Of a DNA stretch of 51,911 nucleotides, positions 235 to 22,650 are shown piece by piece; position 1 is the stretch's first letter; every line of letters starts with the position of its first letter. Origin of the DNA: an uncultured Candidatus Saccharibacteria bacterium (lineage in GTDB: Bacteria; Patescibacteriota; Minisyncoccia; Phycocordibacterales; DATDWN01); assembly GCA_964453075.1 (NCBI GenBank), contig CAYVNM010000006.1, positions 1 through 51,911 on the forward strand, read 5' to 3'. Below the pieces are notes generated by a model. It was not told where the DNA came from. It searched no databases and saw only the letters and a list, made by a program, of their open reading frames with translations. Both the position numbers and the translations under genes were made by a program.

Positions 235-319
235 TGGTGCCCGAGGTGGGAATCGAACCCACATCCCTTACGAGACACGATTTTAAGTCGTGCGCGTATA
301 CCAATTCCGCCACTCGGGC
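235..319 (-). tRNA. tRNA-Leu(UAA)
   Basis: Reverse complement reads GCCCGAG..CACGA CTTAAAA TCGTG..long variable arm..GTGGG TTCGATT CCCAC CTCGGGC A CCA. Type II cloverleaf with encoded CCA. Confidence 0.92.
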
Positions 320-5090: not shown

Positions 5091-7766
5091 ATGCCGCCAT
5101 TTAATCAATTTACAACAAAAGCAAAAGAGGCTATACGTAGGGCCCACGAGGTCGCTATTGAACGTGGACAAAACCATGTTAATTCACTGCATCTTTTGGT
5201 GGCTTTGGTGTTGCAAGAGGAGGGCATTGTTTCTTCAATTCTAGATAAATTAGAAGTAGACACAATATTACTTACAGATTCTCTTTTGGAAAATATAGAG
5301 GGATCAGATGCCGGACAAACTTTGTCTGCATCTTACCAAGTGTATCTTACACCAGATCTAGCATCTGTTTTGGAAACTTCTCTAAAACAAATATCCAAGC
5401 TTCATGATGATTTTGTATCAACTGAACACTTGTTTTTGGCATTGATAGAGGTTCCAAGTCCTGCTCGCGATTTGTTGATGAAATTTAAAATAGAAAAAGA
5501 TTCTGTTCTTAGAGTGGTGGAAGAAATAAGAAGTACAAAAATATCTGGCACAGACTCAACAAAAAAGTTTAAATCTCTTTCAAAATACACTAGAAATCTA
5601 ACAAAACTAGTGGGTATGAACAAACTTGATCCTGTTATAGGACGAGATGATGAGATATCCAGAGTAATACAAATTCTTTCTCGTAGAACTAAAAACAATC
5701 CAATCTTGATAGGAGAGGCTGGTGTGGGTAAAACAGCAATAGCAGAAGGCTTGGCTATTAGAATGGCAATGGGTGAGGTTCCAGAGTCTTTAAAAGACAA
5801 AGAACTTGTTTCGTTGGATCTCGGATTGCTAGTAGCAGGAACAAAATATAGAGGTGAGTTTGAAGAAAGGTTAAAAAATATTTTAAAAGAAATTGAAAAA
5901 TCAGACGGAAAAATTATTCTCTTTGTAGATGAAATACACACAATAGTGGGTGCTGGTTCTGCCGAAGGATCGCTTGATGCATCAAATATGTTGAAACCGG
6001 CTTTGGCTAGAGGAGAATTGCGTGCCATAGGAGCAACAACTCTAAAGGAGTATCAGAAACATATAGAAAAAGACCCAGCTCTTACAAGAAGATTTCAACC
6101 TGTTTATGTTAATGAACCAAGCATAGAGGATGCCATAACGATTCTAAGGGGACTCAAGGAAAAATATGAACTTTATCATGGTGTTCGTATTACAGACGAA
6201 GCAATAGTTGCAGCAGTTAATCTTTCTAGTAGATATATTTCTGATAGATTTTTACCAGATAAGGCTGTTGATCTAATTGATGAATCTGCTTCTTACCTAA
6301 AGATAGCACTTGAAAACAAACCTCCGGTCTTGCAAAACGCGCATTCAAAAATAGTAAAACTTCAAATAGAACACGAGGCTTTGAAAAAAGAAACAGACGC
6401 AAAATCAAAAGCCAGAATTAAAGAAATAGAAAAATCTATAGCAGATCTAAAGGAAGAGACTGGAGAGATAGAACTCAAGTGGAATAATGAAAAAGAGACT
6501 GTTAATGATATAAAAAGCATCAAGAAACAACTTGAGGAACTTCGTCGTGAGGCAGAAACAGCTGAGGCTAGAGCTGATTTAGCTTTAGCCGCAGAAATAA
6601 GATATGACAAGATTCCTACTCTGGAAAAAGATTTGGATAATAAGGCCAAAAGACTGAAGAAGCTTCAGTCTTCGCGCAGGATTTTGAAAGAGGAAATCAC
6701 AGAGAATGATGTTGCTACTATAGTTTCAAAATGGACAGGTATACCAGTTTCTAGAATGTTAGAAGAAGAGGCAGATAAACTAAATAGAATGGAAGATGTT
6801 TTGGAAAAAACTATAGTTGGTCAAAAAGAAGCTGTAAAAAAGATTTCAGACACAATAAAAAGAAGTCGTGCTGGTATCGCAGATCCAAATAGACCTATTG
6901 GTTCCTTCTTGTTTTTGGGTCCAACTGGTGTGGGAAAAACAGAACTTACAAAAGCTTTAGCACAATTCATGTTTAATGATGAGAAAGCTTTAATACGTAT
7001 AGACATGTCGGAGTTTATGGAGAAACATAGTGTCTCCAAGATTTTAGGTGCACCTCCGGGCTATGTTGGTCACGAAGAAGGTGGAACAATAACAGAAATT
7101 GTTCGTCACAGACCATATTCTGTAATTCTTTTTGATGAAATTGAGAAAGCTCATCCAGAAGTCTTTAATGTGCTTTTGCAAATTCTTGATAACGGAAAAC
7201 TTACTGATGCAAAGGGTAGGATAGTGAATTTCAGAAATACAGTTATTATACTGACTTCAAATATCGGTGCTCATTATATAGATAAGATGGAGAAAATAGG
7301 TTTTGCTTTTGATAGCAGTGAAAAAGCAAGTTATGAAGATGCAAAAAATAGAGTGATGGATGCATTAAAAGACAATTTCCGACCAGAATTTTTGAATCGC
7401 TTGGATGATATTATTGTGTTTGATATTTTGAGTCACGAGGCAATTGAGGAAATAGTTAAAATACAGGTAAATATCGTACGTGAGAGATTACTTCAAAAAG
7501 AGATAAAACTGGATCTTTCGCCAGCTGTTTTAGCGTACTTGGCCAAAGAAGGATATAGTCCACAATATGGTGCAAGACCATTGAAACGTCTAATACAAAC
7601 TAAGATACTTACTCCGATAGCAAGTCTCATGGTAAGCAAGGGGTTATCAAAAGGAGGGTCAATTGTGGTAGATATGAAGGCAGGAGAACTTGTCTTTAAT
7701 GTGAAAAAAGGTAAAAACGGATCTTTTGTTACAAATCCATTCACCCATGATGGAGTCTTGGCATAG
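5091..7766 (+). CDS. clpB: ATP-dependent chaperone ClpB
   Basis: Clp_N repeats, two AAA+ modules (GEAGVGKT, GPTGVGKT) separated by a long coiled-coil middle domain. 891 aa. Confidence 0.95.
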   Translation: MPPFNQFTTKAKEAIRRAHEVAIERGQNHVNSLHLLVALVLQEEGIVSSILDKLEVDTILLTDSLLENIEGSDAGQTLSASYQVYLTPDLASVLETSLKQISKLHDDFVSTEHLFLALIEVPSPARDLLMKFKIEKDSVLRVVEEIRSTKISGTDSTKKFKSLSKYTRNLTKLVGMNKLDPVIGRDDEISRVIQILSRRTKNNPILIGEAGVGKTAIAEGLAIRMAMGEVPESLKDKELVSLDLGLLVAGTKYRGEFEERLKNILKEIEKSDGKIILFVDEIHTIVGAGSAEGSLDASNMLKPALARGELRAIGATTLKEYQKHIEKDPALTRRFQPVYVNEPSIEDAITILRGLKEKYELYHGVRITDEAIVAAVNLSSRYISDRFLPDKAVDLIDESASYLKIALENKPPVLQNAHSKIVKLQIEHEALKKETDAKSKARIKEIEKSIADLKEETGEIELKWNNEKETVNDIKSIKKQLEELRREAETAEARADLALAAEIRYDKIPTLEKDLDNKAKRLKKLQSSRRILKEEITENDVATIVSKWTGIPVSRMLEEEADKLNRMEDVLEKTIVGQKEAVKKISDTIKRSRAGIADPNRPIGSFLFLGPTGVGKTELTKALAQFMFNDEKALIRIDMSEFMEKHSVSKILGAPPGYVGHEEGGTITEIVRHRPYSVILFDEIEKAHPEVFNVLLQILDNGKLTDAKGRIVNFRNTVIILTSNIGAHYIDKMEKIGFAFDSSEKASYEDAKNRVMDALKDNFRPEFLNRLDDIIVFDILSHEAIEEIVKIQVNIVRERLLQKEIKLDLSPAVLAYLAKEGYSPQYGARPLKRLIQTKILTPIASLMVSKGLSKGGSIVVDMKAGELVFNVKKGKNGSFVTNPFTHDGVLA

Positions 7767-7804
7767 ATGTGTTTGTTGTGTTAAAGTAGTTAGGTTATAA
7801 ACAT

Positions 7805-7887
7805 GCGTAGGTGGTAGAGTGGTCAATTACAACAGACTGTAAATCTGTCGCCTTCGGGCTACGGGGGTTCAAATCCCTCCCTACGCA
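7805..7887 (+). tRNA. tRNA-Tyr(GUA)
   Basis: GCGTAGG..CAGA CTGTAAA TCTG..long variable arm CGCCTTCGGGCTAC..GGGGG TTCAAAT CCCTC CCTACGC A. No encoded CCA. Confidence 0.9.
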
Positions 7888-7888
7888 C

Positions 7889-7912
7889 AAAAAATCCCCG
7901 CAAGGGGATTTT
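7889..7912 (+). terminator. hairpin after tRNA-Tyr
   Basis: AAAATCCCC-gcaa-GGGGATTTT. Confidence 0.55.
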
Positions 7913-8251
7913 GTGCGTAGGAGCAAAACGAAGTTTTGCGTGAGGGATTTGAACGGATTAGCGGTTTACGCTCGCAGTAGCGAGTGTCGCTAATCCGGTG
8001 CCCAGAAAATTTCAATTCGACGGAATTGAAATTTTCGAGGGAAAATCCCTCCTACTGTTACGTAGGGATTTGAAGACCTTTGATAGTTTTTTGTGAGTTT
8101 ACGAAACAAAAAACAGAAGAGGCTAAAATAGTTTGTTAAACTATTTTAGAAGGTTGTCTATGTTTTTAGAGAGTAGCGAATAAAAACATAATACAACCTG
8201 AACTGAACTTGTAGAGTTTACCGAAACTGTAAGTTTCAAATCCCAAATCTT
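7913..8251 (+). ncRNA. tRNA-Tyr-trailing, tRNA-derived structured region (copy B plus extension)
   Basis: TGCGTAGGAG[CAAAACgaaGTTTTG]cgtGAGGGATTTGAAC is an inverted copy of the tRNA-Tyr 3' end. Hairpins GGATTAGCG..CGCTAATCC and GAAAATTTCAATTC-gacg-GAATTGAAATTTTC follow, with closing ATCCCTC-CTAC. Further T-arm fragments lie at 8062-8075 and 8234-8244, enclosing AT-rich hairpins. Confidence 0.45.
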
Positions 8252-8366
8252 GTGACGATAAGAAAAATATCCGTGACCAAATTTCTTTTTCTAAATAAGA
8301 AAATTGACAGCATGTTATTTTATAAGTATTATTAATTTTGGAAAAAACCTTTTGTCTGGAGGAGTT

Positions 8367-8849
8367 ATGTCAGAAAACGTTGATAGACTTCGTATGCTGG
8401 AGAATGGGTTCTGGACCAACAAAAAGGGAGAGGTTTTTCCTCTCTCTGATGTGGGCGATATCTGGCTCATGCATCTGCTGAAGAAGCTGGATATCTATCG
8501 TACTGGCAACTCATCAAGAGCAGATCGCATGAACAAAATGTACACACTCATTTTGGCAGAGTGTGACAAGAGGAAGTTGGTTACATCTTCTCCGAGATCA
8601 AACAAGTTGTGCCATTGCGGAAGGGTTGGTCTCTACAACGTCAGAGTGATGCAGAATGGTCACCTGAGGTCCCACTATTTCTGTGCGGAACATCGTCAAG
8701 AGGCCATGACTTTGCAGAAAGTGGTTATGGCTAAGAGAGATGTGGGTAAGACACTGAGGGAGAAGGACAGAAAGGAATTTGACCAGGAAGATGCCTGTCG
8801 TTCTGCTGCCAAAAAAACAACAAAATTCGGAAAAGGAGGGTATCGTTGA
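8367..8849 (+). CDS. hypothetical protein (GC-rich cassette C1)
   Basis: Promoter TTGACA(8304)-17 nt-TATTAT. GGAGG SD 5 nt before ATG 8367. 160 aa with a Cys/His cluster (CHCG..FCAEH). Wobble-containing hairpin 8882-8906 plus TTTTCC after the stop. Visibly GC-richer than its flanks. Confidence 0.6.
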   Translation: MSENVDRLRMLENGFWTNKKGEVFPLSDVGDIWLMHLLKKLDIYRTGNSSRADRMNKMYTLILAECDKRKLVTSSPRSNKLCHCGRVGLYNVRVMQNGHLRSHYFCAEHRQEAMTLQKVVMAKRDVGKTLREKDRKEFDQEDACRSAAKKTTKFGKGGYR

Positions 8850-8974
8850 TTTTTACGACAGCCCTCTAGTTCTTTTGGAAAGAAGGCCTCACGGTGGTTG
8901 TGGGGTCTTTTCCATAAAGGTTGCTTTTTTTTCGCCTTTTGTGTATGCTCTAAGAACTTAAATAAATCAAATTT

Positions 8975-9130
8975 ATGTCACAAGACAGATTAATACAGCT
9001 AAAAAACAAGGAGTCTGGGGAAGTATATTGGACTTCAAAAAACAAGAAAAAAGTTGAGCGAAAAATAGAGCTCAAAAAATATAGTAAAAAACTTCGAAAG
9101 AGGATTACCTTCAAAGAAGCCAAAAAATAA
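8975..9130 (+). CDS. rpmG: 50S ribosomal protein L33
   Basis: 51 aa ORF absent from the track (<60 aa): MSQDRLIQLKNKESGEVYWTSKNKKKVERKIELKKYSKKLRKRITFKEAKK. The L33 pattern Y.T.KNK......KlELkKY.P..rKh..fkE.K is present. Confidence 0.85.
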   Translation: MSQDRLIQLKNKESGEVYWTSKNKKKVERKIELKKYSKKLRKRITFKEAKK

Positions 9131-9156
9131 AAACGCCTACTAGGCGTTTTTATTTT
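9131..9156. terminator. hairpin terminator between rpmG and tRNA-Trp
   Basis: AAACGCCTA-ct-AGGCGTTTTTATTTT. Confidence 0.6.
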
Positions 9157-9160
9157 ATTG

Positions 9161-9231
9161 CGGGGGGTGGAAGAATCGGACTCCCGACAACGGTTTTGGA
9201 GACCGTAGTTATACCACTTAACTAACCCCCC
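9161..9231 (-). tRNA. tRNA-Trp(CCA)
   Basis: Reverse complement reads GGGGGGT TA GTTA AGTGGTA TAAC T ACGGT CTCCAAA ACCGT ..GGGAG TCCGATT CTTCC ACCCCCC G. Confidence 0.9.
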
Positions 9232-9256
9232 TAGATTCATCTATGCTACACAATTT

Positions 9257-10189
9257 TTAACTTTTAAGCAAAAAGTGCTCAACGATTTTTTCAGCTTCAC
9301 TGTAATTTTTGGGTTTTACCCACCTTATTTTTTTATCCCCGCCTGCTCCCGACCGAACGGGAGGGCGGGCAGGTCTCTTGAACCATGTCATTTGTCTTTT
9401 TGCATATCGCCATATCTCAGTTTCTAACTTTTCCAAAAATTCTTTTTTTGTTATTTTGTTTTGTAAATATAGAGCTAAGTATCTGTATTCCAAACCCAGT
9501 GCCAACATTCTTTTCCAAGACAAACCCTTTTTATGTAAATTCTGTCCTTCTTTTATCATTCCTTTTTTGACGCGCGAAATTAACCTATTATGAATTCTTT
9601 CTTTCAATTCTTCGTCAGGAATAGTTAATCCTATTTGTAGGAATTGATAATCATTTTTATTCTTTTTTATTTTTGGTACAGAACCAAGTTTGGTTGCTAT
9701 TTCAATGGCCCGGATGAGTCTAACAGGATTTTTTTTATCTATATTTTTCAAACGTTTTGGATCTAGTTTTATTAAAATGGTTTGAAGTTCAGAAAGGCTT
9801 TTCTTCTCTAGTTTTTTACGTAGTTCTTTGTTTGGAGGAACTTCTGGTAGGACAATGTCATCCACTATTGATTGTATGTAGAATCCAGTACCACCACAGA
9901 TAATTGGTAGTTTGCCACGAGCAATGATTTCTTCAATTATTCTTTTTGTGTGTTTCAACCACTCTGACACAGAGAAAATCTTTTTAGGAGAAACAACATC
10001 CAGCATATGGTGGGCAATACCCATCATTTCTTTTTTTGTGATTTTTCCTGTACCCAAGTCTAAGTCGGTGTATACCTGTCTTGAATCAGCAGAAATAACC
10101 TCGCCATTATATTTTTTAGCAACTTTTACGGCAAAATCAGATTTACCTGTGGCAGTAGGGCCAAGTATCACTAGTATTTTAGGTTTCAT
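9257..10189 (-). CDS. miaA: tRNA dimethylallyltransferase
   Basis: P-loop GPTATGKS, ADSRQVY, HHMLDV, YAKRQMTWF. Start set at MKPKILVILG because the longer ORF (to 10273) runs through tRNA-Leu(CAA). Contains an in-frame GC-rich palindromic insert at 9337-9373. Confidence 0.9.
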   Translation of the reverse strand: MKPKILVILGPTATGKSDFAVKVAKKYNGEVISADSRQVYTDLDLGTGKITKKEMMGIAHHMLDVVSPKKIFSVSEWLKHTKRIIEEIIARGKLPIICGGTGFYIQSIVDDIVLPEVPPNKELRKKLEKKSLSELQTILIKLDPKRLKNIDKKNPVRLIRAIEIATKLGSVPKIKKNKNDYQFLQIGLTIPDEELKERIHNRLISRVKKGMIKEGQNLHKKGLSWKRMLALGLEYRYLALYLQNKITKKEFLEKLETEIWRYAKRQMTWFKRPARPPVRSGAGGDKKIRWVKPKNYSEAEKIVEHFLLKS

Positions 10190-10197
10190 TCTATTTG

Positions 10198-10279
10198 TGC
10201 CGGAGAGAGGACTTGAACCTCCATCCCTTGCGAGACGCGATTTTGAGTCGCGCGCGTATACCAATTCCGCCACTCCGGC
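10198..10279 (-). tRNA. tRNA-Leu(CAA)
   Basis: Reverse complement reads GCCGGAG..CGCGA CTCAAAA TCGCG..long variable arm..GGAGG TTCAAGT CCTCT CTCCGGC A. Confidence 0.92.
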
Positions 10280-10340
10280 ATTAACTTTATTAGTCTATAT
10301 TTATTTTACTAAAAAATCAATTTCGTGATAAAATACGTGT

Positions 10341-11384
10341 ATGACACAGTTTTACAATGATTCTGTTTTCTGGATTGATGTAGAAAAAATACACCCGAAT
10401 CCATTTCAACCTAGAAGAGAGTTCGACGAAGCACAATTACAAAGTTTGGCTGACTCCATAAGACAATACGGGGTTCTTCAGGCATTAGTTGTTACTCGCA
10501 AAGAAGTTCCAAAGGAGGATGGTGGTTTGGCTGTTGAATATGAACTCATTGCTGGTGAGAGAAGACTTCGTGCTTCCAAACTAGCTGGTCTAACACAAGT
10601 TCCAGCTTTAATAAAAGTAGGAGATGAGGAAAATGATTTAATGAAGTTGGAGCTTGCCATCATAGAAAACATTCAGCGTGAGGATTTAAATCCTGTAGAT
10701 AGGTCTAAGGCCTTTCAGAGGCTTATAGATGAATTTGGTTTTAAGCACGTTGAAATAGCAAAAAAAGTAGGGAAGAGTCGCGAGTATGTTTCAAATTCTG
10801 TTAGACTTTTATCTCTTCCTCCAGAAATTTTGGACGCTTTGTCTTTGGGTAAAATATCAGAAGGTCACGCAAGACCTCTTATGATGCTCGGTGACAGGGC
10901 GGAAGAACAGAACACTCTTTTTAAAGAAATAATGTTCAAGAAACTTACTGTACGTGAGGCCGAGGCTATAGGTCGCAGAATTGCTTATGACAAGATACGA
11001 AAGAAAGGAATTACACTAGATCCTGAAACACAAGAATTAGAAGAAAAATTAACAGAAACTCTGGGTACTCGTGTCTCGATTGAAAAAAGAGAAAATGGAG
11101 GGAAAATTTTGATAGATTATTTTTCCAATGAAGACCTTAGAGATATTCTGGAACTTATAAAAACGAACAAAGTATCTTCTCCAACAGAGAGATTAGAGAG
11201 ACATATGGCAGAAAATCCTATTCCTCCAAAAAATGACAACATTCCAGATTATGTTAGAGATCCTGACTTGGCAGAAATGACAATAGAAGATTTGAATAAC
11301 ATGGATGATAGAACTCCCGAACAACAAAAAGAAGATGAGAACAGTGAAGACGAGCTGTACTCTATAAAAAATTTCTCAGTTTAA
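10341..11384 (+). CDS. parB: ParB/Spo0J chromosome partitioning protein
   Basis: HPNPFQPRR box, ELIAGERRLRAS ParB box, HTH region, acidic C-terminal tail. Confidence 0.85.
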   Translation: MTQFYNDSVFWIDVEKIHPNPFQPRREFDEAQLQSLADSIRQYGVLQALVVTRKEVPKEDGGLAVEYELIAGERRLRASKLAGLTQVPALIKVGDEENDLMKLELAIIENIQREDLNPVDRSKAFQRLIDEFGFKHVEIAKKVGKSREYVSNSVRLLSLPPEILDALSLGKISEGHARPLMMLGDRAEEQNTLFKEIMFKKLTVREAEAIGRRIAYDKIRKKGITLDPETQELEEKLTETLGTRVSIEKRENGGKILIDYFSNEDLRDILELIKTNKVSSPTERLERHMAENPIPPKNDNIPDYVRDPDLAEMTIEDLNNMDDRTPEQQKEDENSEDELYSIKNFSV

Positions 11385-12895
11385 TTTTTATTTGTTTTAT
11401 CAAGTTCACTTCTTATGTGTCTCCTGGCCATAGTGGTTTTGCAGTAAGGTATCCATTTGCTACTAGGTTTTGAGTTTTTCTTGGTTTCTATTTCTACGCG
11501 ATCGCCATTTTGAAGTATGGTATTTATAGCCACAAATTTTCCATTTATTTTTGCGCCAGACATTCTGTTTCCTATGTCGGTGTGGATGGCATATGCAAAA
11601 TCAATCACTGAAGATTCTTTTGGAAGATCTATCACATCACCTATAGGGGTGAATACAAAAATTCTCTCTTTGAAAAAGTCATCTTTTATATCATCCATAA
11701 ACTCATCACCAGCCTCTTTTTGATACTCTACTAGCTCTTTGACCCAGTGTGGAATATCTACTGTTGGTTTCTCTCCGTTTTCTTTTGTCTGTTTTTTTGC
11801 TGGTAGGATTTTTGTAACCCAAAGAAGACTTGGGTTTGTTGTTTTTTTCTTTACACCTTCTTTATATGATAGATGTGAAGCGATACCGTACTCTGCTTCT
11901 CGGTGCATCTCTTCTGTTCTTATCTGTACCTCAATAATTCCTCCATCTCCAGAAAAAATGGTTGTATGAATAGATCTATAGCCGTTAAGTTTTGGAGAGG
12001 CGATATAGTCTTTTATTCTTCCAGGAAGCGGTCTCCATGATCCGTGTATTATTCCAAGGATTCTATAGCAGTCAGGTATTTCTGGAACTGTTATACGAAG
12101 GGCGGATATATCATAAATTTTTTCAATATCCATATCGTTTCGAGAAAGTTTCCTAAATAGAGAATATAAACCTTTAACTCTGTGATCTATGCGAAAATGA
12201 ATTATGCCGTTTTCTGCCAAATGTTTTTTTATTTGTTTCTCAAATTTTTCTAGATATCTTTCTTGCTCTTCACCACGAATTTTTAGTAGTCTCTGTACTT
12301 CTTTGTATTCCTTTGGATAAACATAGGAAAAAGCTAAATCCTCCAACTCTCTTTGGAGCCTTTTTATTCCGAGTCTGCTTGCTATAGGTGCGTATATTTC
12401 TAGAGTTTCTTTGGCTATGCGCATTTGTTTTTCCTCGCGAACATATTGAAGAGTCTGCATGTTGTGGAGCCTGTCGCATAGTTTAATAATCAAAACTCTA
12501 ATATCTTGTGACATGGCCACAAAAAGTTTTCGCAAGCTCTCGTTGTATCTGGTTGTACCTCTGTATTTTATTTTTCCAAGTTTAGTAACTCCTTCAACCA
12601 AAAACAATATTTCAGATCCAAATTCTTTTTCTAGTTCTTCTCTTGTAACAGATGTGTCTTCGACAATATCATGTAGGAAACCGGCAGCTATGGTTGTAGC
12701 TCCCATACCAAGTTCTGCGATGTTTTTTGCTGTTGCGAATAGGTGATTGAAATATGGTTCTCCACTATTTCGTACATGGCCCGAATGCGCCTTCATAGAG
12801 AAATTATAGGCTTTTTCTATAAGCGCTATATCACTAGAATCTTTGGTATTCAAAAGAGAGAAAATCTCTTTAATATCATTGTTTCCACTATTCAT
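11381..12895 (-). CDS. RelA/SpoT-family (p)ppGpp synthetase/hydrolase
   Basis: HD hydrolase domain (HSGHVRNSGEPYFNHL..LHDIVED), synthetase domain (NGYRSIHT), C-terminal TGS-like segment. 504 aa. Confidence 0.9.
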   Translation of the reverse strand: MNSGNNDIKEIFSLLNTKDSSDIALIEKAYNFSMKAHSGHVRNSGEPYFNHLFATAKNIAELGMGATTIAAGFLHDIVEDTSVTREELEKEFGSEILFLVEGVTKLGKIKYRGTTRYNESLRKLFVAMSQDIRVLIIKLCDRLHNMQTLQYVREEKQMRIAKETLEIYAPIASRLGIKRLQRELEDLAFSYVYPKEYKEVQRLLKIRGEEQERYLEKFEKQIKKHLAENGIIHFRIDHRVKGLYSLFRKLSRNDMDIEKIYDISALRITVPEIPDCYRILGIIHGSWRPLPGRIKDYIASPKLNGYRSIHTTIFSGDGGIIEVQIRTEEMHREAEYGIASHLSYKEGVKKKTTNPSLLWVTKILPAKKQTKENGEKPTVDIPHWVKELVEYQKEAGDEFMDDIKDDFFKERIFVFTPIGDVIDLPKESSVIDFAYAIHTDIGNRMSGAKINGKFVAINTILQNGDRVEIETKKNSKPSSKWIPYCKTTMARRHIRSELDKTNKN

Positions 12896-22053: not shown

Positions 22054-22168
22054 CCCAGGGTCAGTCGTCTCCAGCGCCGTTCGGTCTAGCACCGGACGGC
22101 GTTTTCGTTTTTATCTGGGGTGGTAAAAAATAAAAAAAAGTGTAATATGTAGAATGTTTACTAAACAT

Positions 22169-22215
22169 TGGGAGATCGTCTAGGATTAGAGGCCTTGAGC
22201 CTTTAGAGGGGTGAG
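22169..22215 (+). pseudogene. degraded 5' fragment of tRNA-Gln
   Basis: TGGGAGATCGTCTA is identical to the first 14 nt of tRNA-Gln at 22505. The rest aligns with deletions in the D loop and anticodon loop (GAGGC CTTGA GCCTT). There is no T arm or 3' acceptor strand. Confidence 0.55.
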
Positions 22216-22504
22216 CTCGGGATGGGACCCGAGCGCAAGACCTTCTTCAGATATTTTATGAGCACAGCGAAATAAAATATCGAAAAGGTGTACTGCTCCT
22301 GTAAGGAGAGATAGGTATGGAGCGCAAGACCGGAGTCTGTCGAGATGAGGTGAGAAGTGATATTATCACTTCGCAAGACCTTGAACATTTTGTTATCAAA
22401 ATGTGAAAGGTGTACAGTTCTTGTAAAGAAGGGTCGCGAAAATTTTCTCCAGAAAATTATTTGTGACCGATTCCCGTTCATTAAAATTTGTTTGTTTCTA
22501 AAGC
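22216..22504 (+). repeat. structured repeat region between pseudo-tRNA-Gln and tRNA-Gln
   Basis: Three (G/T)CGCAAGACC boxes (22233, 22322, 22371). Two GAAAGGTGTAC boxes, each followed by a GTAA-loop hairpin (CTCCTgtaAGGAG / TTCTTgtaAAGAA). Several AT-rich hairpins. Confidence 0.4.
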
Positions 22505-22575
22505 TGGGAGATCGTCTAACGGTAGGACAGAGGCCTTTGAAGCCTTTAATTGGGGTTCGATTCCCTGTCTCCCAG
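22505..22575 (+). tRNA. tRNA-Gln(UUG)
   Basis: TGGGAGA TC GTCT AACGGTAG GACA GAGGC CTTTGAA GCCTT TAAT TGGGG TTCGATT CCCTG TCTCCCA G. Confidence 0.9.
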
Positions 22576-22650
22576 CTTTGGGCGGAAACAAATTTTAAAT
22601 CTAATTTCTTCCCATCCAGTTTGGGATAGTTTCGGATTTCTAGTAGGATT

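Follow-up and report, generated by a model that had tools for sequence, protein, structure and literature searches.

The transfer RNA (tRNA) gene for tyrosine in a 51,911-nucleotide stretch of DNA from an uncultured Candidatus Saccharibacteria bacterium (contig CAYVNM010000006.1, hereafter the window) is followed by a stack of three structured modules: a complete one of type A, one of type B that is truncated at its 5' side, and the 3' remnant of a type C module. The complete module begins with a perfect inverted copy of the last 22 bases of tRNA-Tyr, split by a small hairpin at the border between acceptor stem and T-stem. Modules of this design occur behind seven tRNA species in relatives, always in the orientation of their tRNA, and their outer arms carry the sequence of the particular tRNA that they follow. 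We tentatively read them as non-autonomous, protein-less miniature integrative elements that would settle at the 3' ends of tRNA genes by way of a folded single strand.

The tRNA-Tyr(GUA) gene lies at 7805-7888 on the plus strand (ARAGORN; 61 bits with the Rfam tRNA model), with its T-loop at 7868-7874, the T-stem 3' strand at 7875-7879, the acceptor 3' strand at 7880-7886, the discriminator A at 7887 and a C at 7888; we call this 3' end copy D0. It is followed on the same strand by a terminator-like hairpin, t (AAAAAATCCCC-GCAA-GGGGATTTT, 7889-7912), which has a 7-bp stem and a loop that is of the GNRA type in the tRNA sense. Only 4 T stand after this stem, with 6 T on the opposite strand, and the terminator scan did not list it. 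The hairpin is the tip of a long palindrome, D0-t-I. Within I, the acceptor part (I-acc, GTGCGTAGG, 7913-7921, plus strand) is the reverse complement of the acceptor 3' strand, discriminator and C (100%), and thus a copy of the acceptor 5' strand. The conserved junction AG-CAAAACgaaGTTTTG-CGT (7922-7941, plus strand), with its small hairpin CAAAAC gaa GTTTTG, divides the inverted copy precisely where its acceptor and T-stem parts meet, and the T part (I-T, 7942-7954, plus strand) is the reverse complement of the T-loop and T-stem 3' strand over 13 nt (100%). A repeat finder returned two exact inverted repeats here, each of 13 nt and 100% complementary: GTTCAAATCCCTC (7867-7879) with GAGGGATTTGAAC (7942-7954), and CCTACGCACAAAA (7880-7892) with TTTTGTGCGTAGG (7909-7921).

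The body of the module consists of two hairpins on the plus strand. Hairpin A, which defines type A (GGATTAGCG-GTTTAC-GCTCGC agta GCGAG-TGT-CGCTAATCC, 7955-7996), contains an internal loop and a G.U pair that are both conserved; hairpin B (7997-8042), which belongs to subtype A1, is made up of GGTGCCCAG, an AT-rich stem with a GACG loop, and CGAGGGA. After these comes a direct copy, D1 (AAATCCCTCCTAC, 8043-8055, plus strand), which repeats the end of the T-loop, the T-stem 3' strand and the start of the acceptor 3' strand, with one C absent and the end cut short. D1 pairs with I-T according to the repeat finder, closing the junction. An earlier note on this DNA, drawn up from the letters alone, had described a hairpin-split inverted copy of the tRNA-Tyr 3' end, two more hairpins, and a strand that re-pairs with the copy to give a junction of several helices, the closing one differing from tRNA to tRNA. 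Each of these parts is present, the re-pairing strand a few bases away from the position implied there.

Next in the stack is the older type B module without its 5' part (8056-8244, plus strand), which has AT-rich hairpins inside and whose intact counterpart stands directly after tRNA-Tyr in the related locus L001. Its surviving parts are the 3' half of a small hairpin (8055-8060), CGT (8061-8063), an inverted T copy (AGGGATTTGAA, 8064-8074), the hairpin GAAAC-TGTAA-GTTTC (8223-8237) and a direct copy (TTCAAATCCC, 8235-8244). The two copies are exact 10-11-mers and correspond to the further T-arm fragments, one inverted and one direct, of the earlier note. The third module, of type C and older still, survives as a 3' remnant (TTGTGACGATAAGAAAAATATCCGTGACC and AAATTTC, 8250-8285, plus strand) that agrees with the 3' half of its complete counterpart in L002 (...CTTGTGACGACAAGAAAAATATCCGTGGCCAAATCTC); with it the feature continues to about 8285, further than the earlier note had it. 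The region folds much more stably than shuffled sequences, with z = -9.4 for the plus strand and -9.9 for the minus strand.

A further module in the window, of type A2, lies on the minus strand at 92-236, where it abuts the CCA of tRNA-Leu(UAA) (235-319, minus strand). It is built from the sequence of that tRNA (GCCCGCGAG - small hairpin - CGC - GTGGGAATTGAAC - hairpin A - hairpin B - GATTACCCCAC), as the earlier note had it, and it matches our type A covariance model with 136.6 bits. The module sits within an operon, between the Leu and Lys genes in the order Cys, Leu, module, Lys, with a promoter-like site at 460-432 on the minus strand. Beyond it, at 61-91 on the plus strand, we observed CAAAACGAAGTTTCG, which is nearly the small hairpin of the Tyr module (CAAAACGAAGTTTTG) in the opposite orientation relative to tRNA-Leu and may be a fragment of another, inverted unit.

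The window belongs to the chromosome of a patescibacterium from the Paceibacteria (Parcubacteria) group. We used 80 ClpB-syntenic loci from species-representative genomes of related Paceibacteria (14-52 kb per genome, metagenome-assembled genomes throughout), the nearest being of the Paceibacteria, Zambryskibacteria and Taylorbacteria type, and compared each tRNA of the 80 loci with its own flanks for inverted and direct copies of its 3' end. Downstream of tRNA-Tyr, an inverted copy of at least 9 nt of the gene's own 3' end was found in 20 of 58 genes, at +28 to +71; upstream there was none (0/58), so the inverted copy is beyond chance. Direct copies were found in 19 of the 58, mostly at +117 to +172, and again never upstream (0/58). 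They are 12-21 nt long and end at the discriminator and C, with a left edge that varies over T-loop positions 54-58. Scored by alignment, an inverted T-arm copy is present at 46 of the 203 tRNAs of the 80 loci (Tyr, Leu-UAA, Leu-UAG, Leu-CAA, Trp, Cys and Lys), and the copies match the local tRNA over at least 15 different T-stem/acceptor sequences in these seven species (for example, GTTGGATTCGAAC and TCCAACCCGGCGCAC in L014). A metagenome scan for the tRNA-Tyr of the clade gave 10 more loci with enough downstream DNA, and modules are present at 7 of them. The idea that the trailer tracks its neighbouring tRNA is thereby borne out, and the occurrence of trailers at other tRNAs and in many relatives rules out a single local duplication.

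Position and orientation are equally regular. The type A covariance model, which is home-made and has rough E-values, was run over 1 Mb on both strands with a cut-off of E<0.01 and gave 27 matches, including weaker ones to type B and type C modules. All 27 are downstream of a tRNA and in the same orientation, and 26 lie at -9 to +137 nt from the tRNA end: some abut it (-9 to +1), others stand past a hairpin (+24 to +50), and a few, behind another module, are as far away as +137. The single outlier is in L008, where a 3.4-kb insertion parts the module from tRNA-Tyr.

The complete units, about 130-190 nt long, share one design. At the 5' side there is an optional inverted acceptor copy, then (G)AG, the small hairpin, CGT (variants CGC and CGG) and an inverted copy of T-stem and T-loop ending GAA(C/A/G); at the 3' side a long hairpin and a second hairpin are followed by a direct copy that starts inside the T-loop. 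A GNRA terminator hairpin may stand ahead of the unit. The small hairpin occupies the place where nucleotides 8-48 leave the acceptor/T-stem stack of a real tRNA, and the unit is therefore tRNA-shaped in topology, with a "T-loop" that is paired and bears the two body hairpins. An acceptor-like helix identical to that of the tRNA is present where both the inverted and the direct acceptor copies exist; many units do not have the acceptor-like 5' strand. The arm helix of some type B units is further broken by a bulge of 2 nt (AC).

At least three body types can be distinguished, each with its own style of small hairpin. Type A, with subtypes A1 and A2, has the body GGATTxxCGGTYTACG...TGTCGxxAATCC and a small hairpin with a 6-bp stem and a 3-nt loop. 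In type B the body is ...GTACTGAnnCTGTAAGnnTCGA and the small hairpin has a 7-8-bp stem and a TGGGA-like loop, and in type C they are ...CGGGGTCGCGG - AT hairpin - CCGTGACC and a CAAGCAAACTGCTTTGCTTG-like small hairpin. Identical body types, with the matching small-hairpin types, are found behind different tRNAs. We considered whether the CTGTAAG hairpin of type B is the anticodon arm of tRNA-Tyr and rejected this, since the loop is identical behind Leu, Trp and Lys. The terminator-like hairpin also recurs: ATCCCCG(N)AAGGGGAT, with its GNRA loop, accompanies modules behind Tyr, Leu-UAG and Leu-CAA in other genomes almost unchanged (window 7894-7909; L014 8732; L008 267 and 12196; L004 11746; L016 8848; L045 9681). 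At six of these seven sites it is directly 3' of the tRNA; the site at L008 12196 is past the 3.4-kb insertion and ahead of the old module, and in L016 the sequence past the hairpin resembles a module only in part.

Base-pair covariation in the modules is strong. In ten type A modules, standard pairs occupy 94.9% of cells, against 76.1% in shuffles, none of which (0 of 500) attained the observed value, and compensatory, two-sided changes occur in 31 of 47 pairs; controls with slid partners gave 40-54% pairing. The stem of the small hairpin covaries (helices 1-2). Compensatory changes affect 12 of 18 pairs in hairpin A (helices 5-6), where the G.U pair at columns 63:78 is kept in the sense orientation in 7 of 10 modules, and 13 of 15 pairs in hairpin B (helix 7). 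Comparison of the two strands shows the tRNA-sense fold to be the more stable one in 23 of 26 modules, with a mean advantage of 6.1 kcal/mol. Between species the modules are 0.66-0.77 identical, compared with 0.37-0.53 for third codon positions of ClpB, and the A1 module at Tyr in the window is as similar to the A1 module at Trp in L017 (0.71) as same-locus pairs are to one another. The fold is under selection, on the tRNA-sense strand.

The content of these sites turns over among close relatives. L001, the closest relative, with 98% ClpB identity to the window, has type B only. Its tRNA-Tyr is identical through the C at 7888 and continues with an encoded CCA; downstream, type B is about 97% identical, and the terminator hairpin differs although its flanks are about 99% identical. 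In the window, a 132-nt type A module and a different hairpin replace 17 nt of the intact 5' part of the L001 type B module. L002 (94% ClpB identity) has a complete type C module followed by a type B remnant, and in L145 a B-C-B array corresponds to the single B of L147, the later L145 units consisting of an inverted T copy, a body and a direct T copy joined by 3-7 nt. Decay has a polarity: the tRNA-proximal unit is complete and the distal units lack their 5' parts. Loci with tRNA-Tyr and no module also occur (L136, L141, L146, L003 and L008). Module content thus differs among relatives, and none of the pairs compared is close enough to display a clean insertion with unchanged flanks.

The direct copies have the appearance of displaced tRNA ends. 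They reach the discriminator and C and are often followed by a terminator of their own (L027, L024, L025, L004 and L137), sometimes by the next inverted copy. In L045 and L029 the CCA is encoded in the downstream copy and not in the live tRNA end. Several direct copies of type B share the quirk TTCAAA(AC)TCC beside T-stems as different as CCCTC, CCTTC and CCTGC, which implies that the T-loop part belongs to the element and the T-stem/acceptor part to the tRNA, with the junction at the T-loop/T-stem border. Together, the tRNA end, terminator and inverted copy make a nearly perfect palindrome, of 36 bp in L072 and with exact arms of 13+13 nt in the window.

These observations could be accounted for as follows. 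A unit would enter by recombination within the segment of the tRNA gene from the T-loop to the 3' end, much as tRNA-targeting islands do, and would leave an intact tRNA beside the newcomer. The old 3' end, pushed downstream, would become the direct copy, which would then match its tRNA automatically, and the element would bring the new end, the terminator and the inverted copy. Repeated entry would build stacks, and because a long palindrome is prone to central deletion, older units would be trimmed at their 5' sides. The inverted copy would let a single strand fold as a mimic of the acceptor/T-arm helix, broken by the small hairpin (and, in some type B units, by the 2-nt bulge). This folded strand, single-stranded DNA or RNA in the tRNA sense, may be what a recombinase, or another enzyme acting in trans, recognises; by analogy with integron attC and CTX attP(+), the hairpin-split inverted copy and the sense-strand bias suggest that a folded single strand is the recognised form. 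Among the roles put forward in the earlier note, nested att-site scars of small integrative elements is the best fit, because relatives differ in presence or absence, stacks hold older copies truncated at the 5' side, and the direct copies look like displaced ends; the word "scars" undersells conserved, covarying families. Control of tRNA folding by an anti-T-arm and a tRNA-mimic decoy are conceivable roles but fit poorly, given that a hairpin separates most Tyr-linked modules from the tRNA and that turnover is rapid.

Several points weigh against mobile elements of this kind. No free, circular or excised form was seen in these assembled loci, and no genome has a near-identical pair of copies at different tRNAs within the 14-52 kb sampled, which gives no hint of recent transposition. 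Pfam scans detected no integrase, transposase or reverse transcriptase in 20 of the roughly 55 open reading frames (ORFs) of the window, nor any Phage_integrase, transposase or reverse transcriptase among 25 listed of the 29 Pfam families in 46 ORFs within 3.5 kb of module-bearing tRNAs. How a body type would gain the right copies for a new tRNA species is not accounted for, which is a weak point. The genomes of Patescibacteria are among the smallest and most streamlined in bacteria, and conserved elements that last in such genomes at the same locus and show compensatory changes (at Leu-UAA in the window, L004 and L011) could equally have a host function. Finally, where a module lies in a tRNA operon or ahead of the terminator (Leu-UAA; Trp in L016 and L017), one transcript must cover both it and the tRNA.

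Such a host function could be that of a structured, tRNA-shaped RNA from the tRNA transcript, the main alternative, though one that we consider rather unlikely. The RNA would have an acceptor-like helix with the sequence of the neighbouring tRNA, a small arm replacing nucleotides 8-48, and a long T-stem-like helix with two hairpins, and it might serve to direct processing by RNase P, RNase Z or the CCA-adding enzyme, as a decoy or sponge for proteins that read the acceptor/T-arm helix, or as an antisense brake on tRNA folding. The constant co-orientation with the tRNA, the better folding of the sense strand (23 of 26) with its sense-oriented G.U pair, and the strong covariation with conservation above third codon positions all favour an RNA, as do the transcription that location in a tRNA operon or before a terminator must entail, the G with which the window Leu module begins straight after CCA, and the lack of mobility genes among the scanned neighbour ORFs. 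However, only about a quarter of tRNAs have a module, close relatives vary in type and number, and a gene would not be expected to form stacks that include dead, truncated copies. Most Tyr-linked modules are behind a terminator-like hairpin and have no promoter-like site of their own, and units lacking the acceptor-like 5' strand are frequent. Pairing of the T-loop does away with the "elbow" that RNase P and further tRNA enzymes read, and there is no Rfam match.

It is improbable that the modules arise from DNA repair or replication at tRNA genes, as side products that need no machinery of their own. In such a scheme, template switching at the terminator hairpin would make the inverted copy, while unequal exchange and tRNA-anchored foreign DNA would shuffle the downstream segment. 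Quasipalindrome correction produces near-perfect palindromes like those of L072 (36 bp) and the window (13+13 nt), the tRNA genes of this clade are hot spots of rearrangement (orientation flips at 13 of 58 loci, 5' tRNA fragments, GIY-YIG insertions and the 3.4-kb insertion), and a recombinase gene was lacking among the scanned neighbour ORFs. What such a process leaves unaccounted for is the AG-small hairpin-CGT at the exact acceptor/T border, the body hairpins with their compensatory changes, the same body types behind seven tRNA species, and conservation above that of neutral sites. Still further down the scale, it is very improbable that each module represents an opposite-strand gene or pseudogene: a degenerate convergent copy of the same tRNA that shares a bidirectional terminator and is left over from tRNA flips. 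Read on that strand, a module does give an acceptor 5' strand, two hairpins, a T-loop with T-stem 3' strand, an acceptor 3' strand and a hairpin with 6 T rather than 4 T, and tRNA orientation does flip among relatives. Yet neither ARAGORN nor the Rfam tRNA model detects anything on the strand opposite a module, and a local T-stem 5' strand, D-arm and anticodon arm are all missing. In 23 of 26 modules the antisense strand gives the less stable fold, the conserved G.U would read C.A on it, the same bodies accompany unrelated tRNAs, and no promoter-like site is placed to drive such a gene.

The rearrangements of tRNA genes in the clade deserve description in their own right. Relative to ClpB, tRNA-Tyr points the other way in 13 of 58 loci (L006, L009, L020, L023, L027 and L045 among them), and tRNA-Trp, tRNA-Lys and tRNA-Leu flip between relatives as well; modules remain co-oriented with their tRNA. 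The L008 insertion (8799-12190), between tRNA-Tyr and the old module, has a tRNA-end remnant (CTCCGCAC) on its far side and contains two ORFs, one for a helicase-like protein of the ResIII/DEAD kind (640 aa, four "INT_rpt" repeats) and one of 326 aa that has no Pfam match; the tRNA-Tyr site thus takes gene-sized DNA too. Small ORFs of the GIY-YIG nuclease type, called by motif alone (VYVIKS...FYIGCTNNLERRIKEHN and YVYVIRS...YVGITNNVERRIKEHN), lie just upstream of intact tRNA-Tyr in L053 (8701-9057, plus strand) and of intact tRNA-Leu(CAA) in L056 (9678-10064, minus strand). Each is preceded by a 15-nt duplicate of the tRNA 5' end (GCGTCGGTGGTAGAG and GCCGGAGTGGCGTAA, respectively), and from their sequences they look like free-standing insertions of the homing-endonuclease type at tRNA genes.

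The window has seven tRNAs (ARAGORN and Rfam), and at two of them, Tyr and Leu-UAA, an inverted copy of the gene's own 3' end lies downstream. At tRNA-Gln the related modules are upstream instead. In this region (22169-22479, plus strand), a copy of the 5' two-thirds of tRNA-Gln (22169-22211) precedes two modules that resemble type B and then a tail of type C, which ends GTGACC-GATTCCCGTTC (22431-22479), and the intact tRNA-Gln stands downstream at 22505-22576; the 5' copy is detected as 14 nt at -336 from the intact gene. Modules can therefore end up between a dead 5' fragment and a live gene, an arrangement that fits loss of the palindromic centre along with the old 3' end. The protein-coding content of the window is of the housekeeping kind: a short IF-2, RbfA, ClpB, MiaA, ParB, RelA/SpoT, TopA, DprA, SerRS, Dus, DnaX and ClpP. 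The first gene past the module stack at tRNA-Tyr (8304-8849, plus strand) encodes 181 aa without a Pfam match and has a promoter-like site (11/12) at 8304-8332. The longest MiaA-like ORF (9257-10273, minus strand; IPPT domain from residue 66) overlaps tRNA-Leu(CAA) (10197-10279, minus strand); its true start is probably further downstream and the overlap an artefact of ORF calling.

Searches for known families gave little. Rfam 15 at the gathering threshold returned only tRNAs over the whole window, and permissive Rfam scans of 7880-8300, 1-450 and 22100-22620 gave chance-level matches only, with no tRNA beyond those known, no tmRNA and no YrlA. The modules contain no ORF. A blastn search of 7700-8400 against 50,697 phage records found the tRNA itself only, and pattern scans of IMG/VR for the type B and type A cores found chance matches only (for B, the required hairpin was present in 1 of 54, which was coding-like; for A, there was one GC-rich, unrelated match); on these results a phage origin was rejected. 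On reading the alignment, we saw neither the attC R''/R' boxes (RYYYAAC ... GTTRRRY) nor a dif-like XerC/XerD consensus, the ends of the units being derived from the tRNA (e.g., GTGCGTAGG ... CCTACGCAC). Retro-insertion primed on, or switched to, mature tRNA was also rejected: a CCA junction would be expected and is found in 4 of 9 abutting modules, compared with 23% of module-free tRNAs. The inverted copy is preceded by TTTTG instead of TGG and holds no complement to CCA. We likewise rejected the overwriting of tRNAs by 3' strands borne by the element, as the stems have no excess of G.U pairs or mismatches (0.80 versus 0.76 per tRNA for Tyr). Full-text literature searches on tRNA-linked repeats, miniature inverted-repeat transposable elements (MITEs) and folded att sites in Patescibacteria, the Candidate Phyla Radiation and Parcubacteria yielded no description of such elements.

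It is possible, though on balance doubtful, that the modules represent an undescribed class: a tiny, protein-less element specific to one tRNA gene, whose single strand, DNA or RNA in the tRNA sense, would fold into a hairpin-broken imitation of the acceptor/T-arm helix of that gene for entry and maintenance by enzymes acting in trans, and which would co-evolve with the tRNA base for base. An alternative of equal novelty would be a family of tRNA-shaped RNAs released from tRNA transcripts, each mimicking the acceptor arm of its own tRNA. If the modules are mobile, they would represent a new mode of gene targeting, in which a folded single strand with no gene of its own imitates the target duplex, and they would help to explain the heavy rearrangement around the tRNA genes of this group. 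Should they prove to be RNAs, the modules would form an unrecognised family of tRNA mimics, paired one-to-one with tRNAs, in organisms whose RNA biology is almost unexplored. In either case, about a quarter of the sampled tRNA genes carry these structured appendages despite genome streamlining. There is also a practical side, since tRNA fragments can mislead predictors of tRNAs and att sites and the near-perfect palindromes might trouble assemblers.

Two kinds of RNA-related system resemble the modules in part. tRNA mimics (viral tRNA-like structures, mascRNA at the MALAT1 3' end, YrlA and the tRNA domain of tmRNA) also set an acceptor-like helix with real tRNA sequence on a T-stem-like helix, with a branch where nucleotides 8-48 leave; a module, too, stands downstream of an RNA gene and could be released by RNase P or RNase Z. 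In contrast to these mimics, the modules have a fully paired T-loop and hence no elbow, have no anticodon-like arm, often lack the 5' acceptor strand, and do not match the tRNA, tmRNA or YrlA families of Rfam; their processing is hypothetical. The primer-binding site of retroviruses and long-terminal-repeat elements is likewise complementary to the 3'-terminal 20 or so nucleotides, acceptor 3' strand and T-arm, of a specific tRNA. The inverted copy in the modules, unlike such a site, has no CCA complement and is interrupted by a hairpin, the junction with the tRNA is not consistently CCA, and no reverse transcriptase occurs among the scanned neighbour ORFs.

Other parallels are found among DNA elements. 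Repetitive extragenic palindromes (REP) and REPINs, bacterial interspersed mosaic elements (BIMEs), Correia elements and MITE-like repeats are short, non-coding extragenic hairpins that occur in families and are mobilised in trans. The modules are also short, non-coding and hairpin-forming and persist in families; the known repeats, however, have fixed ends and no tie to tRNA genes, whereas the outer arms of the modules vary with the tRNA and every copy found is at a tRNA gene. Unlike MITEs of the DDE kind, the modules have no fixed terminal inverted repeats, only the T-loop-derived part being constant, and their flanking repeat is 12-21 nt long instead of a short target-site duplication. Integron attC sites and the attP(+) site of the Vibrio phage CTX, which is used by XerCD, recombine as folded single strands. 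As in these, imperfectly complementary arms of the modules fold into a duplex imitating the target, extrahelical features (the small hairpin and the 2-nt bulge) break its symmetry, structure is kept while the stem sequence varies, and there is a preference for one strand; in its integrated order (target copy - loop - inverted copy - body - target copy) the unit agrees with the prediction for integration of the CTX type. The modules differ in having the end of a tRNA gene as target, not attI or dif, and in showing no visible R/L box consensus, no linked IntI or Xer gene and no cargo in the bodies, and we know of no single-stranded stage in these bacteria. With the tyrosine-integrase prophages and islands that integrate at tRNA 3' ends, the modules share insertion at the tRNA 3' end in a fixed orientation with the live tRNA intact, a direct repeat of the tRNA 3' segment from the T-loop region bounding the insert, and tandem build-up with the newest copy beside the tRNA. 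They differ from those elements in being 130-190 nt long rather than kilobases, without ORF or integrase, and in holding an internal, hairpin-split inverted att copy and a covarying hairpin interior, with the same body at different tRNAs. In behaviour, therefore, the modules resemble both tRNA-targeting islands and repeats of the MITE/REPIN type, without the defining features of either, and what sets them apart is a combination for which we found no description: a protein-less unit, strict tRNA specificity, a hairpin-split mimic of the target, and covarying bodies common to several tRNA species.

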